DNA from: a candidate division WOR-3 bacterium
Lineage (GTDB): Bacteria; Hydrothermota; Hydrothermia; UBA1063; CAJXJZ01
Assembly (NCBI GenBank): GCA_027038175.1
Contig: JALVYB010000098.1
Location: forward strand, 7,606-71,605
DNA: 64,000 nt
Direction: 5' to 3'
Part shown: one piece after another, positions 1,348-5,686 of the stretch
Numbering within the stretch: the stretch's first letter is position 1
Layout of the letters: each line of letters starts with the position of its first letter
The notes under the pieces: model-generated
The model's input: the letters and a program-made list of their open reading frames with translations, nothing else
What the model was told of the DNA's origin: nothing
Database searches by the model: none
Made by a program: the position numbers and the translations under genes

Positions 1348-1587
1348 ATGGGAGAGATTAAAGATCTCATAGAGTACATCGCAAAGGAACTCGTAGACCA
1401 TCCTGATCTTGTGTCTGTAAAGGAAATACCTGGCGAAAAGACAGTCATATATGAACTCAAGGTTGGTGAAGGTGACCTCGGAAAGGTAATCGGAAAAGAG
1501 GGAAGAACAGCAAAGGCCATCAGAGCCATCATTGCAGCCGCTGCAATGAAGAAAGGCAAGAGGGCCGTCCTGGAGATACTTGAATAG
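1348..1587 (+). CDS. KH-domain RNA-binding protein (UPF0109/YlqC-like)
   Basis: 79 aa with a [17 protein letters not shown] motif. Sits in the conserved position between rpsP and rimM. Confidence 0.8.
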
Positions 1588-2086
1588 TGAAGTATCTCTT
1601 GTTGCAGTCGCCAGAATAATAAAACCTTTTGGGCTGAGAGGTGAGGTTAAGCTTCACCTCTTAGCCGATTTAAATGACTTCCTGACTTATCCCGAATTTT
1701 TTATACGAGAGAAATTTTTCTACAAAAGGCTTGTCCTCGTTAACCTCCGTTCACGTGGCACGGTAGCACTTTTTGAAGGATATGCCTCAAGAGACGATGC
1801 AGAGTCTCTGAGGGGCAGAACTCTTTACGTGAAAGAGGAACACCTTGTTGAAAAAAACAGAGTGGATGAGTTCTACCCTTTTGAACTTGAGGGATTGGAG
1901 GTGGTTTTCAAAGAAAATATTCTGGGTATTGTGAGTAGAATGCTTGATTTTAATGGCAGATGGTACATAGAGGTTTCCGGGGAAAAGGATATACTTATAC
2001 CCTTTGTAAAACCTCTTGTAAACAGAGTTGACTGGGAAAACAAAAAAATATTTGTAGATTTACCAGAGGGCTATCTTGAATTATGA
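1580..2086 (+). CDS. rimM: 16S rRNA processing protein RimM
   Basis: 168 aa with an N-terminal [18 protein letters not shown] motif and a PRC barrel. The TTG start overlaps the stop of the KH gene. Matches the conserved rpsP-KH-rimM-trmD order. Confidence 0.85.
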
Positions 2087-2808
2087 AAATTACTGTTATC
2101 ACCCTGTTCCCGGAGATGTTTCGGGGCGTTTTTGAATTTGGGCCTGTAAAAATAGCGAGAGAGAAAGGGCTTGTTGATATAAATTTTTTAAATCTCAAGG
2201 ACTTTGCGGAAACTCCAAAGGACGTAGACGATTATCCCTATGGCGGTGGGGCAGGAATGGTTATTAAGCCAGAGCCTATAAAAAAATCTCTTGTGGCTGC
2301 CGGGGAGGGTGTTAGAGTACTTACAACTCCGAAAGGCCGGCCGTTTACTCAGGAGATAGCCAACACCTTATCTAAAGAAGATCATCTCATCATATTCTGT
2401 GGCAGGTATAAGGGTATTGACGAGAGAGTGAGAGATATGTTCGATTATGAGATTTCAATAGGCGATTATGTGCTATCTGGAGGGGAAATTCCAGCGATGG
2501 TTATTGTTGATTCTGTTGTAAGGCTCCTTCCCGGAGCGACTTCTGATGTAACCTCTGTGTTGACTGACTCTTATCAAAGCGGAATACTATCAGAACCTCA
2601 ATATACACGACCTCGTGTATTTGAGGGAAAAGAGGTTCCTGAGGTTTTATTATCCGGGAATCATAAGGCAATAGAGCGTTTTAGAAGAAAAGAGGCGCTT
2701 AGAACGACACTGTTAAAGCGACCGGACCTTTTGTTTAAAGTCAAACTTAGTAATGAAGATTTGCGTCTAATTGTTGAAATTTTGAAAGAGGGCGGTAAAG
2801 ATAGATAA
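2083..2808 (+). CDS. trmD: tRNA (guanine37-N1)-methyltransferase
   Basis: 241 aa. [13 protein letters not shown]..., a GGGAGMV motif and an SPOUT fold. 4-bp overlap with rimM. Confidence 0.9.
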   Translation: MKITVITLFPEMFRGVFEFGPVKIAREKGLVDINFLNLKDFAETPKDVDDYPYGGGAGMVIKPEPIKKSLVAAGEGVRVLTTPKGRPFTQEIANTLSKEDHLIIFCGRYKGIDERVRDMFDYEISIGDYVLSGGEIPAMVIVDSVVRLLPGATSDVTSVLTDSYQSGILSEPQYTRPRVFEGKEVPEVLLSGNHKAIERFRRKEALRTTLLKRPDLLFKVKLSNEDLRLIVEILKEGGKDR

Positions 2809-2841
2809 GAAGAATAGAAAAGTTACAATGGGGGATTTATA

Positions 2842-3581
2842 ATGATAGATTTGTTTTCAAGTGTTAATAATATGGTGGTAGTAGATAAAGAGAAAATTGA
2901 GAAATACGAAGTTAACGAAATTATAAACAAAGTGATTTTAGGCGATGCACTTCGAGTGCTAAAGAAGTTACCATCTAGTGTGGTAGATATGGTCTTTATG
3001 GTTCCACCCTATTTTCTACAACTTCCAAGTAAAAAACTGAGACGTTGGAAAGTCAAAACAGAAGTTGATGCCGTAAATGATGATTGGGATAAATTTGGTT
3101 CATTTGAAGAATATGACAATTTCATTAAAAATATCCTAACAGAGATTAAAAGAGTAATGAAACCCAATGCTACTATTTGGGTGATTGCGACATATCACAG
3201 TATTTTTAGGATTGGTAAAATTATGCAGGATTTAGGGTTTTGGATACTCAATGATGTTCATTGGGTAAAAACAAATCCAATGCTAAATTGGTTGGGAGTT
3301 AGATTTACAAATGCAACAGAGACTTTAATCTGGGCAGTAAAAGACAAAAAAGCGAAAAAATATACCTTCAATAAAGAATGGGCAAAGAAATTTGGTATAG
3401 GAAAAGTCGGAGCAAATTTTGGGTTCTGCCAATATGCAATGGTAAAGAGCGATTAAAAGATGAAAAAGGTAAAAAATTACACTCCACTCAGAAACCAATT
3501 GAGCTTTTGAAAAGAGTTATATTAACTTCTACAAAAGAGGAAGATGTTGTTTTGGATTTCGTAGCTGGCACTGGAGGTTAA
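2842..3581 (+). pseudogene. CcrM/HinfI-family beta-class N6-adenine DNA methyltransferase, disrupted by a frameshift and premature stop, with degenerate catalytic motifs
   Basis: Two overlapping ORFs (2842..3456 and 3378..3581) together align collinearly with CcrM-type MTases (DDWDKFGSFEEYDNF, KPNATIWVIATYHSIFRIG, DLGFWILNDVHWVKTNP, FTNATETLIWA, YTFN, then FWVLPICNGKERLKDEKGKKLHSTQKPIELL). A -1 shift maps to about 3414-3423 (AAATTTTGGG). Motif IV reads VPPY rather than DPPY. Motif I reads FVAGTGG rather than FxGSGTT, and TAA follows immediately, so motifs II and III are missing. Confidence 0.7.
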
Positions 3582-3584
3582 ACT

Positions 3585-4313
3585 ATGGTTACCAAGGTTG
3601 AAGCGATAAGAAAGGTGCTTGAAGAATTTGGTGGGAAGGCAACTTGGCAACAAATTTATGATAATATTGAGAAGTATTATCCTGCTGCTAAAGCAAGTAA
3701 AGCGTGGAAGGAGGGAATAAGAGGAGTATTATATAGAGAAATAAGAAAAGGAAAAAATTTTAAAAAAATTGGGATAGGAATTTTCGCATTAAAAGAATAC
3801 GAAGAAGAACCTATGCCTAAAAAAGAAGATAAGATTAGGATGCACCCATTTATGGAGGGTATTTGTATAGAATTAGGTAACCTGCACAATTTCTTAACAT
3901 ATACTCCTGATAAAACAAATATATTTAAAGAAGGAATACCACTAAATCAAATATCCACTCTAAATGAAATACCACCTTTCACATATCCTGAAATTATTAA
4001 AGATGTTAAAAGAATTGATGTTATTTGGTTTAACAAAGGAAAATTAATTTTTCCACAAAGAGTTTTTGAAGTTGTTCATAGTTTAAATACTTTGTCAGAG
4101 GCACTTAATAGGTGTTTGCAACTTCTTCCATTTAATGTAAAGTTTTATATAATAGCTCCAAAAGAATATTCAAAAAAGTATTATTCAAAAATAGAGAAAA
4201 AACCGTATGCAGAATTTAAAAATAGATTTTTCTTTATGGATTACGATAGGATAATTGCTTTTTATGAGTATGCGGTAAAGTATGATAAACTTAAAAGAGA
4301 GGTATTAGGATGA
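3585..4313 (+). CDS. hypothetical protein with HARE-HTH/Mrr_N-like winged-helix N-terminus; candidate restriction-endonuclease-like partner
   Basis: 242 aa. The N-terminal 70 aa (VEAIRKVLEEFGGKATWQQIYDNIEKYY...KKIGIGIFALKEY) resemble the wHTH domains found on restriction enzymes. The C-terminal region carries a possible degenerate nuclease core (RIDVIWF...FEVVHS). Start follows a GGAGG RBS. The 3' end overlaps the next ORF by ATGA. Confidence 0.4.
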   Translation: MVTKVEAIRKVLEEFGGKATWQQIYDNIEKYYPAAKASKAWKEGIRGVLYREIRKGKNFKKIGIGIFALKEYEEEPMPKKEDKIRMHPFMEGICIELGNLHNFLTYTPDKTNIFKEGIPLNQISTLNEIPPFTYPEIIKDVKRIDVIWFNKGKLIFPQRVFEVVHSLNTLSEALNRCLQLLPFNVKFYIIAPKEYSKKYYSKIEKKPYAEFKNRFFFMDYDRIIAFYEYAVKYDKLKREVLG

Positions 4314-5194
4314 TAGAATATAACAAAATTAAGGAAATTCTGAATAGGCATCATTGGAATATAAAATCTGATTTACTAAGAAAGATTTCAGAAATTGATT
4401 TCAAAGTTCCATATCGCTTTAGCACCCTATCTCAAAAAGAGGTCAAGTTATATAATAAAAATCAAATCCTCCAACATCTATTACAATCTCACGAGATAAG
4501 GTTTGGAGATGCAATGGAAGAACTAATCACAGAAATTATTGAAGATTTAGGATATAGGAATCTTCCTAAAAATATCAGAAATAGTGAGGGAGAAACACTT
4601 TCTATTGACCAGTATTTTACTAATGAAAACACATATTATTTCATTGAGCAAAAAGTAAGGGATGATCATGACTCTACAAAGAAAAGAGGTCAAATAAACA
4701 ATTTTGAGAAAAAATTAGAAGTCTTAAATAACTCCCATGGCGGGAATTTGATTGGTATTATGTATTTTATAGACCCAGATTTAAGGAAGAATCAGAATTT
4801 CTATGTTGAGAAACTTAGAGAATTTTCTGATTTTTATGGTGTGGAACTTCATCTATTTTATGGTCGTGAGTTGTTTGAGTATTTCGATAGCCCTCAAGTA
4901 TGGGACGATTTAATACAGTGGCTCAAAAGATGGAAAGATGAACTGCCGGAATTACCAGAAATAAATTTTGACGAAAATCCAGAAGAAAGCTTTGAAGAAA
5001 TTAAAGAATTAGAAATCAGATACTGGAGGAAAATCCTGCAAAACGAGAAGTTATGGGACGGAAATATAATGGAAATCTTGTTTAAAGAAGGTACTACTCT
5101 AACTTTAATGTTAGACTATTTCAGACAAAAAGAAGATAAACCACATGTTAATTTAGCAAGACTACTTGAGGATAAATTGAAGGAGTATTATTAG
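4310..5194 (+). CDS. PD-(D/E)xK nuclease, type II restriction-endonuclease-like
   Basis: 294 aa with a clear E...D-x13-E-Q-K arrangement (MEELITE ... SIDQYFTNENTYYFIEQK). Translationally coupled to the upstream ORF and adjacent to the dead MTase. Confidence 0.5.
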   Translation: MIEYNKIKEILNRHHWNIKSDLLRKISEIDFKVPYRFSTLSQKEVKLYNKNQILQHLLQSHEIRFGDAMEELITEIIEDLGYRNLPKNIRNSEGETLSIDQYFTNENTYYFIEQKVRDDHDSTKKRGQINNFEKKLEVLNNSHGGNLIGIMYFIDPDLRKNQNFYVEKLREFSDFYGVELHLFYGRELFEYFDSPQVWDDLIQWLKRWKDELPELPEINFDENPEESFEEIKELEIRYWRKILQNEKLWDGNIMEILFKEGTTLTLMLDYFRQKEDKPHVNLARLLEDKLKEYY

Positions 5195-5258
5195 TCTGGT
5201 GTGTAACTTTGCAGTACATCTATGATGGTATAAAATTTAAAACTAAAGGAGGCACAAA

Positions 5259-5633
5259 ATGAGCAACGTAATGAAGGAGATTGAAAAACAGTTTATGAGG
5301 GATGATATTCCGGATTTCGGGCCTGGTGATACCATAAAGGTGTGGCTCAGAATAAAGGAGCTGAAAGAAGATCCGAAAACGAGAAAAATAGTTGAGAAGG
5401 TGAGATTGCAGCCCTTCGAGGGTGTTGTCATAAGACGCAGGGGTGGAGGTTTAAACGAAACGTTTACGGTGAGAAAGGTGACACAGGGAATAGGTATTGA
5501 GAAGATTATCCCTATACATTCACAGGTTTATGAGAAGATTGACGTAATAAGAAGAGGTAAAGTCAGAAGAGCAAGGATATACTACCTCAGAGAGAGAAGG
5601 GGTAAGGCTGCAAGGATTAAAGAAAAAAGGTAA
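5259..5633 (+). CDS. rplS: 50S ribosomal protein L19
   Basis: 124 aa. The GDTIKVWLRIKE...RLQPFEGVVI...RKVTQGIGIEKIIPIHS sequence is canonical L19. An AAAGGAGG RBS precedes the start. Confidence 0.9.
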   Translation: MSNVMKEIEKQFMRDDIPDFGPGDTIKVWLRIKELKEDPKTRKIVEKVRLQPFEGVVIRRRGGGLNETFTVRKVTQGIGIEKIIPIHSQVYEKIDVIRRGKVRRARIYYLRERRGKAARIKEKR

Positions 5634-5658
5634 GCATATTCAGAAAAGATTTTTAAAA

Positions 5659-5686
5659 AAGCCCTGCATTTGCAGGGCTTTTTTAG
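5659..5686. terminator. bidirectional rho-independent terminator
   Basis: Stem GCCCTGC / GCAGGGC (5661-5678) with an ATTT loop, flanked by an A-run and a T6 run. Sits between convergent rplS (+) and the 5718..7241 (-) gene. Confidence 0.7.

Follow-up and report, generated by a model that had tools for sequence, protein, structure and literature searches.

The window analysed here is a 64-kb stretch of DNA from a candidate division WOR-3 bacterium. Between positions 2842 and 3581 of its forward strand lie two overlapping open reading frames (ORFs), ORF1 and ORF2, which together form the remnant of a DNA methyltransferase gene. We refer to the intact gene as M and to the remnant as ψM. Two further genes follow on the same strand, here called X and R, and the three genes form a cassette that lies within the trmD-rplS operon. 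R is a full-length restriction endonuclease gene of the HpyAIV/HinfI family. The features of the locus are collected in Table 1. We have little doubt that the methyltransferase gene is genuinely decayed and dead; the questions raised by this are how it was lost, whether X played a part in the loss, and how the cell tolerates R.

Table 1. Features of the ψM-X-R locus, in positions of the window
Feature	Positions	Strand	Description
ORF1	2842–3456	+	204 aa; 5′ portion of ψM; out of frame past 3417; stop codon at 3454–3456
ORF2	3378–3581	+	67 aa; homologous to methylases from about 3418 (WVLPICNGKERL...HSTQKP...LDFVAGTGG, then stop)
Motif IV lesion, D54V	3001–3003	+	GAT to GTT (A to T at 3002), DPPY to VPPY; DNA alignment A4
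P148L	3283–3285	+	In the NPMPNW segment, invariant elsewhere
One-base deletion	3417–3418	+	G lost between AAT and TTT, −1 frameshift; DNA alignment A5
P240F	3558–3560	+	Motif I, DPxAG to DFVAG
Deletion junction	3566–3584	+	Motif I codons GGC ACT GGA fused to the X ribosome-binding site GGAGGT, then TAA
Gene X	3585–4313	+	242 aa, intact; N-terminal winged helix (weak HARE-HTH match) and NmeDI_C
Gene R	4310–5194	+	294 aa, full-length; HpyAIV/HinfI-family type II restriction endonuclease
Mosaic patch 1, M core	2921–3560	+	88–89% nucleotide identity to M of the X-less cassettes L004 and L007; about 75% to the collinear L042 and L043
Mosaic patch 2, R core	4464–5134	+	88–94% nucleotide identity to R of L004 and L007
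Cassette ψM-X-R	2792–5243	+	2.45 kb, between trmD (2083–2808) and rplS (5259–5633)

The two ORFs match consecutive segments of the Pfam family PF01555 (N6_N4_Mtase): ORF1 scores 91.1 bits over profile positions 1–119, and ORF2 scores 51.6 bits over positions 138–193 of 221. The protein obtained by fusing them where the frame changes reaches 141.9 bits (cutoff 26.7), which places it in this family. A tblastn search with residues 210–267 of the homologue P0001 finds its match at 3402–3575, in frame 3. The nearest solved structure is that of CcrM (6PBD; E = 7e-64, residues 31–245 against 16–228), and the motif order is that of the beta class, with VPPY (residues 54–57) preceding the motif I remnant DFVAGTG (239–245). 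An initial annotation, made from the letters alone, had aligned the two ORFs collinearly with CcrM-type beta-class methyltransferases and had proposed a profile search against CcrM/HinfI models; the search bears this out, with one qualification. Against the NCBIfam CcrM equivalog model NF050803 the joined protein matches positions 3–217 of 350 with 288.9 bits, and ORF1 alone with 207 bits, both far under the cutoff of 830. Taken together, the PF01555 matches, the nearest structure and this score mark the gene, at the level of sequence, as a beta-class adenine methyltransferase of the CcrM/HinfI type, in the sense of family and not of orthology with CcrM. There are more than 7,800 homologues of the methylase, the nearest being intact proteins of 323–326 residues, to which ORF1 is 85–87% identical. 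GANTC specificity is likewise predicted at the family level, from the similarity to CcrM and from the HpyAIV-family partner.

The likeness to CcrM (Caulobacter, 6PBD), M.HinfI and M.HpyAIV extends to the order of motif IV, target-recognition segment, motif X and motif I, and the blocks DDWD, FESF..YD, WILNDxxWxKxNPMPN and H(P/S)TQKP are common to CcrM and the window gene. However, the intact relatives of the window gene (285–326 residues) are without the C-terminal domain of about 80 residues found in CcrM, and have HSTQKP where CcrM has HPTQKP. CcrM is an orphan cell-cycle enzyme, whereas the window copy is catalytically dead, truncated and part of a restriction cassette.

Lesions were checked against 13 intact relatives in a protein alignment (A1), and at the DNA level in alignments A4 and A5. 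In motif IV, the sequence ATG GAT CC has become ATG GTT CC in the window; all the relatives have GAT, and the Asp is invariant in all 13. The replacement of DPPY by VPPY described in the initial annotation is thus correct, and the catalytic (D/N/S)PP(Y/F/W) motif is absent from the window copy. At the site of the frameshift, the relatives have GCAAATGTTTGGGTT, where the window has GCAAAT-TTTGGGTT; L004, L007, L020 and L021 all have AATGT(T/G)TGGG here. The base lost is a G, which when intact had T on each side (AAT-G-TTT), and no uninterrupted frame continues past 3417. The same annotation placed a −1 frameshift in a T4G3 homopolymer. Its sign and place are right, but the cause is not slippage in a pre-existing homopolymer, since the lost base is a G: the T4 run at 3417–3420 is the product of the deletion, which argues against a homopolymer sequencing error.

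In a leave-one-out test, the window protein departs radically at five columns that are otherwise invariant (E46S, D54V, P148L, P240F and T246G), compared to between zero and two departures, all conservative, in the close intact relatives. On this alignment, P148L, E46S and T246G are lesions that the initial annotation had missed. Over the best-conserved part of the protein, the window copy has 10 lineage-specific novel amino acids against 10 synonymous-type changes, where the same ratio in the four closest intact genes is between 1:14 and 4:8. Two of the lesions originally proposed need to be revised. HSTQKP is invariant in the 13 intact relatives and is therefore the normal motif of the subfamily rather than a lesion of HPTQKP. 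In motif I, the VAGTG of DFVAGTGG also occurs in intact relatives (DPVAGTGTTGY in P0024 and P0047), and only the preceding change of Pro to Phe is aberrant.

The 3′ end of the gene is missing. The TAA codon at 3579–3581 comes directly after AGTGG, whereas the intact relatives run for about 55–80 residues further (TTGY..., motifs II–III); the absence of motifs II and III, noted from the start, is hence upheld. About 55–60 codons are gone, from the middle of motif I through motifs II and III to the end of the C-terminal tail. The profile match ends at position 193 of 221, and a complete S-adenosylmethionine (AdoMet)-binding region (motifs I–III) is lacking. A tblastn search with the residues equivalent to the missing part (P0001 268–326) found no match anywhere in the 64-kb window.

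Where a full-length M is followed by X, it ends in ...YMKLEVD and a stop codon, and the ribosome-binding site of X lies within the last codons of M (L044: AAATTGGAGGTTGATTGATG). In the window the junction reads GGCACTGGAGGTTAAACTATG / GCTGGCACTGGAGGTTAAACTATG: the Ala-Gly-Thr-Gly codons are joined straight to GGAGGT, with TGGA as microhomology. Both L043 and L042 have their junction at the same codon (GGAACTGAAGGGGGATAAATATG / GCTGGAACTGAAGGGGGATAAATATG), and the window is collinear with L043 over 2911–5071, that is, across the ψM/X junction. As read from these alignments, the 3′ truncation marks one boundary of a deletion of about 55–60 codons at a microhomology, by which motif I and the X ribosome-binding site became fused. 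Because L042 and L043 have the same junction, this is not a fresh independent hit; the deletion is most simply viewed as an inherited event that would predate the divergence of these cassettes, whose X proteins are 81% identical. The earlier argument that several independent lesions indicate genuine decay and not sequencing error is accordingly right as to the decay, but the truncation has to be taken out of the list of independent events. With distal motif I and motifs II–III gone, Val in place of the catalytic Asp, the frame broken, and P148L and P240F in addition, the lesions show that the predicted product would be unable to methylate.

We considered whether the frameshift, and perhaps other lesions, could be sequencing or assembly errors in a gene that is in fact functional, since the sequence is metagenome-assembled and the shift lies beside the T4G3 run. 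However, the same sequence is present, 100% identical, in the Logan SRR18691003 and ENA ERZ23491667 assemblies, whose contigs are broken at different places, and in the 76.6-kb NCBI contig. The lost G is not a homopolymer unit, and L042 and L043, from different samples, share the truncation junction. Even with its frame restored, the product would still have VPPY, would lack motifs II–III and would carry P148L and P240F. It is therefore extremely improbable that the gene is intact and misread. The T4G3 run could also be taken as a sign that the broken frame is a regulatory switch of the methylase, by phase variation or programmed frameshifting, and there are well-known phase-variable methyltransferases that have homopolymer tracts. 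Here, though, runs of four and three bases are too short for slippage switching, the relatives have no tract at this site, and restoring the frame returns neither the catalytic Asp nor the missing AdoMet-binding motifs, the C-terminal third being absent. We give a switch virtually no credence.

By contrast with the dead M, R looks intact. It scores 205.8 bits against the HpyAIV family model NF045832 (cutoff 160), with residues 2–264 on model positions 1–266 of 269, and matches the PADLOC REase_II profile at 4e-69. It keeps 104 of the 107 columns that are at least 90% conserved, its three departures comparing with 1–4 in intact relatives, and its core IDQYF...FIEQKVRDDHD is unchanged. HpyAIV and HinfI cut GANTC. 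R is thus apparently intact and constrained, and is predicted to be a GANTC endonuclease. Its start overlaps the end of X as ATGA. As in known HpyAIV/HinfI restriction-modification (R-M) systems, the nearest intact relatives are adjacent M-R pairs (L004, L123), and Thermosipho atlanticus has a named M together with an 'HpyAIV family type II restriction enzyme'. The window differs in having a dead M beside an intact-looking R, with a third gene, X, between them.

There are 180 GANTC sites in the window, one per approximately 355 bp. This is fewer than in dinucleotide shuffles (239 ± 15) but is 0.93 of a third-order Markov expectation, and we rejected GANTC depletion as a proxy for restriction pressure, as being uninformative. 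We note that the 1.9 kb at 2663–4557, which contain the methylase remnant and X, have no GANTC at all, where about five would be expected at the window average; R itself contains three, at 4558, 4670 and 4789. In the 64-kb window, no second methylase was found among the other ORFs by methylase motif, nor any other copy of the family. The active cognate methyltransferase that a functional type II R-M system encodes alongside its endonuclease is thus not present within the window. The nearest intact homologues come from other samples or metagenome-assembled genomes, and the protein database held no closer donor of R.

X has 396 homologues, which form a tight family of about 240 residues. The window copy has every invariant residue, and dN/dS against its relatives is 0.08–0.19; by these measures X is intact and constrained. 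Precomputed hits for the exact protein identify PF27126 (NmeDI_C, E ≤ 1e-5), although our local Pfam scan did not yield it. There is a match to HARE-HTH at 19.9 bits, under the Pfam cutoff of 25.9, and a weak match to the PADLOC REase_II profile (351 positions, E = 1.6e-4). An AlphaFold model (pLDDT 78) has a winged helix at the N-terminus, which gives linker-histone-like matches, and an alpha/beta domain at the C-terminus. A Foldseek search for a PD-(D/E)XK nuclease fold gave no match at E ≤ 0.001, with weak similarity to NucS, Mus81 and Can2, all at E > 0.003. The NmeDI_C and REase_II matches liken X to R.NmeDI, which is a 351-residue enzyme (PMC2095814); X is much shorter, at only 242 residues, and has no significant structural neighbor in the PDB. 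Its winged helix also invites comparison with DpnI and the HhiV4I-type type IV enzymes that depend on N6-methyladenine (6mA): 6mA-dependent type IV enzymes have been characterized among winged-helix nuclease fusions, and a role in reading modified DNA has been proposed for HARE-HTH (PMC11037411).

We then examined 80 loci around X homologues, scoring M and R on each side. Full-length M (with DPPY and motif I present) stands beside an intact X in L044, L054 and L081. From these three loci, the ancestral unit, as far as gene content can tell, is M-X-R, and X does not exclude M absolutely; strict incompatibility of X and M, which we had considered as an absolute rule, was rejected for the same reason. 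At most of the remaining X loci M is absent or cut short. Differing breakpoints indicate at least nine separate events: truncations at residues around 266, 257, 212, 200, 102 and 88–91, together with an internal deletion, loss of the 5′ end and loss of the whole gene. Most of the deletions end no more than about 15 nt from the start of X and spare its ribosome-binding site. Four of the lineages with a dead M (the window, L043, L048 and L012) have a full-length R; in the others R is broken. It is also broken in two loci where M, as far as it was recovered, is intact, namely L054 (full-length M) and L041 (M cut by the contig start). The damage to R takes various forms: at L041 (1366–2280) one nonsense codon interrupts LLQSHEIRF, and the recovered portion of M looks intact; at L011 (3276–3573) a stop and a large internal deletion; and at L042 (3237–3526) a frameshift.

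Of the related loci that lack X, 23 were taken from species-representative genomes, and every one of them has a full-length M; the association of X with loss of M has a Fisher p of 2e-5 to 2e-7, calculated on two locus sets that were ascertained differently. A separate subclade of X has a 5′-truncated beta-class methylase of another family directly past the X stop codon, and X is solitary in about 15 loci. The truncated methylase of that subclade (L094, L098, L100, L103, L114 and L115) has 158–196 residues, is without DPPY and keeps HPTQKP and DPFMGVGST; further-decayed remnants of it are found in L097, L101, L102, L107 and L109. One proposal is that M was lost through conflict with X: as a modification-dependent nuclease of type IV-like character, X would use its winged helix to read adenine-methylated DNA, and an m6A methyltransferase next to it would be selected against. 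The characterized 6mA-dependent fusions are in keeping with this. Loss of M beside X but not in the 23 loci without it, an unrelated methylase cut short on the other side of X, and X genes standing alone, as expected of an enzyme that needs no protective methylase, are all in its favor. However, the three loci with both genes full-length speak against it, as do the Foldseek result and the sub-cutoff HARE-HTH match; the statistical association suffers from the different ascertainment of the two sets; and a conflict leaves the tolerance of an intact R unexplained. We consider it unlikely that this is how M was lost. We attach a similarly small probability to the proposal that X is a selfish or modification-dependent nuclease gene, which settles beside or inside beta-class 6mA methyltransferase genes and makes them dispensable or harmful. 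Were this so, it would explain why methylases are truncated up to the ribosome-binding site of X or from its stop codon, why X stays intact, and why a HinfI-type endonuclease survives without its own methylase.

The cassette is a mosaic (Table 1). The R core, like the M core, is about 75% identical to the collinear X-bearing relatives, and R codons 52–245 are almost identical to those of R in L007. L004 is an M-R cassette, and L007 consists of M, a gene for a 348-residue protein, and R. The start of M, the ψM/X junction, X and both ends of R are of X-bearing lineage origin, and at motif I the window switches from L007-like to L043-like sequence. Between L042 and L043, X is 99% identical and ψM 90–93%. 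Because two L004/L007-like cores sit in an X-bearing frame, with a switch at motif I, two related GANTC cassettes must, to judge from these identities, have met and recombined. This affects the use of dN/dS as a pseudogenisation clock for ψM, which we tried and rejected: the value is 0.15–0.16 for the window against L004/L007 and 0.067 for an intact pair, but since M is recombinant the remnant's value mostly reflects history inside intact genes. The 348-residue middle gene of the L007-type cassettes was considered as a relative of X (242 residues), and rejected as it has no similarity to X. It lies between intact M and R (L007 5267–6313; also L008–L010 and L019–L021), has a weak EVE-domain match (E = 2e-4), and in its C-terminal part is nuclease-like by eye. 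The gap between M and R seems to be a slot for reader-nuclease genes.

A close relative, L128, lacks the cassette. This 1.47-kb contig (1–1469) aligns to window positions 1521–2791, across rimM-trmD (95.7% nucleotide identity), and then directly to 5244–5449 (89.3%). The jump from 2791 to 5244 identifies 2792–5243, in this comparison, as additional sequence within the rpsP-KH-rimM-trmD-rplS operon; the gene order rpsP-rimM-trmD-rplS is well conserved across bacteria. In L128, trmD overlaps the start of rplS; the window trmD has a different C-terminus (..EILKEGGKDR, then stop). At the joints there is an imperfect 9-nt direct repeat, AAAGAGGGC (2785–2793) and AAAGGAGGC (5245–5253), which takes in the ribosome-binding site of rplS. 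Around the cassette there is also a perfect inverted repeat of 9 bp, AAAGTTACA / TGTAACTTT, at 2819–2827 and 5202–5210, which is 15 nt ahead of the M start and 8 nt past the R stop; this may be chance in AT-rich DNA. Transposon-type flanking repeats were looked for and rejected, as these two pairs were the only candidates and both are possibly chance. The ENA assembly has a break at 5298 (the end of scaffold_489), 55 nt to the right of the insertion, with the rest of the window on scaffold_86, and the Logan contig bridges it. The break would be consistent with a population that is polymorphic for the cassette.

No terminator was found within the cassette, and a strong operon terminator lies past rplS, at 5653–5686. 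There is a promoter-like site at 2815–2843. These observations bear on the possibility that ψM has been kept in cis, with no role as an enzyme, as a platform for expressing X and R by way of its promoter, its 5′ region and translational coupling. M has kept its 5′ part in at least six lineages, in which the deletion stops about 15 nt or less from the X start codon and leaves the purine-rich ribosome-binding site in place; moreover, the TAA that ends ψM is close to the X ATG at 3585, and X and R overlap. On the other hand, promoter matches are not above expectation (18 found, against 14.4 in shuffled sequence), the frameshift stops ribosomes at 3456, 129 nt ahead of X, and so breaks the coupling, and readthrough from the trmD operon may suffice. 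Retention as a platform is thus possible, though we would not favor it as the explanation for the locus.

The locus is explained most economically by the ordinary decay of a single component of a horizontally acquired, recombining R-M cassette: 2842–3581 is the non-functional M remnant of a predicted GANTC-type (CcrM/HinfI/HpyAIV-like) type II M-X-R cassette. The 3′ deletion, with its junction common to L042 and L043, would be the oldest lesion. Later, recombination with another, related GANTC cassette would have replaced the M core and the R core, and point lesions would have accumulated afterwards under relaxed selection. The remnant may now persist mainly as an upstream entry for transcription and translation of X and R, two genes that selection would still maintain. 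The intact R may be tolerated because GANTC is methylated in trans by another methyltransferase of the genome, possibly that of the recombination donor; alternatively, R may be unexpressed or inactive. Of these, a trans GANTC methyltransferase elsewhere in the genome is the likeliest. Protection in trans is made plausible by how common such enzymes are, with their thousands of homologues, and by the mosaic, which shows that a second cassette was once present. We note in this connection two homologues from Calderihabitans maritimus, P0042 (301 residues) and P0044 (289 residues), for which the longest recorded contig is in both cases 53,134 nt. This suggests that they are on one contig; they would then exemplify redundant family methylases in one genome, as trans protection requires.

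Several points count against this account. A full-length R without M in cis occurs in four lineages, which is commoner than a simple decay in which R dies first would predict. The trans-acting methyltransferase is hypothetical, the search having covered 64 kb of the genome. The sequence is known from assemblies, and the population may be heterogeneous at 3417. Finally, recombination in M makes the dN/dS of the remnant uninformative, and the dating of the lesions is correspondingly indirect.

In the usual decay of R-M systems, R is lost first and M survives as an orphan, and R-M cassettes act as mobile insertions. The locus resembles mobile and decaying R-M systems in that the cassette is inserted relative to an empty site in a relative, with a short repeat at the joints, and in the patchwork of intact and broken M and R across loci. 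It differs from them in that M was lost first in several lineages, with R full-length.

The pseudogene is an ordinary, decayed type II methylase, and it is its context that is of interest. Taken alone, it means that the organism no longer uses the methylase at 2842–3581. As an insertion, the locus is a clean example of a defense cassette in the rpsP-rimM-trmD-rplS operon, with the empty site on record. The puzzles that it presents are an apparently intact GANTC endonuclease in DNA that has its site every few hundred base pairs and no linked methylase, and the consistent loss of the methylase from cassettes that carry the winged-helix/NmeDI_C gene. If X does turn out to be a nuclease that reads methylation, these loci would be a case in which a type II methylase has lost its place in its own operon to a type IV-like enzyme.

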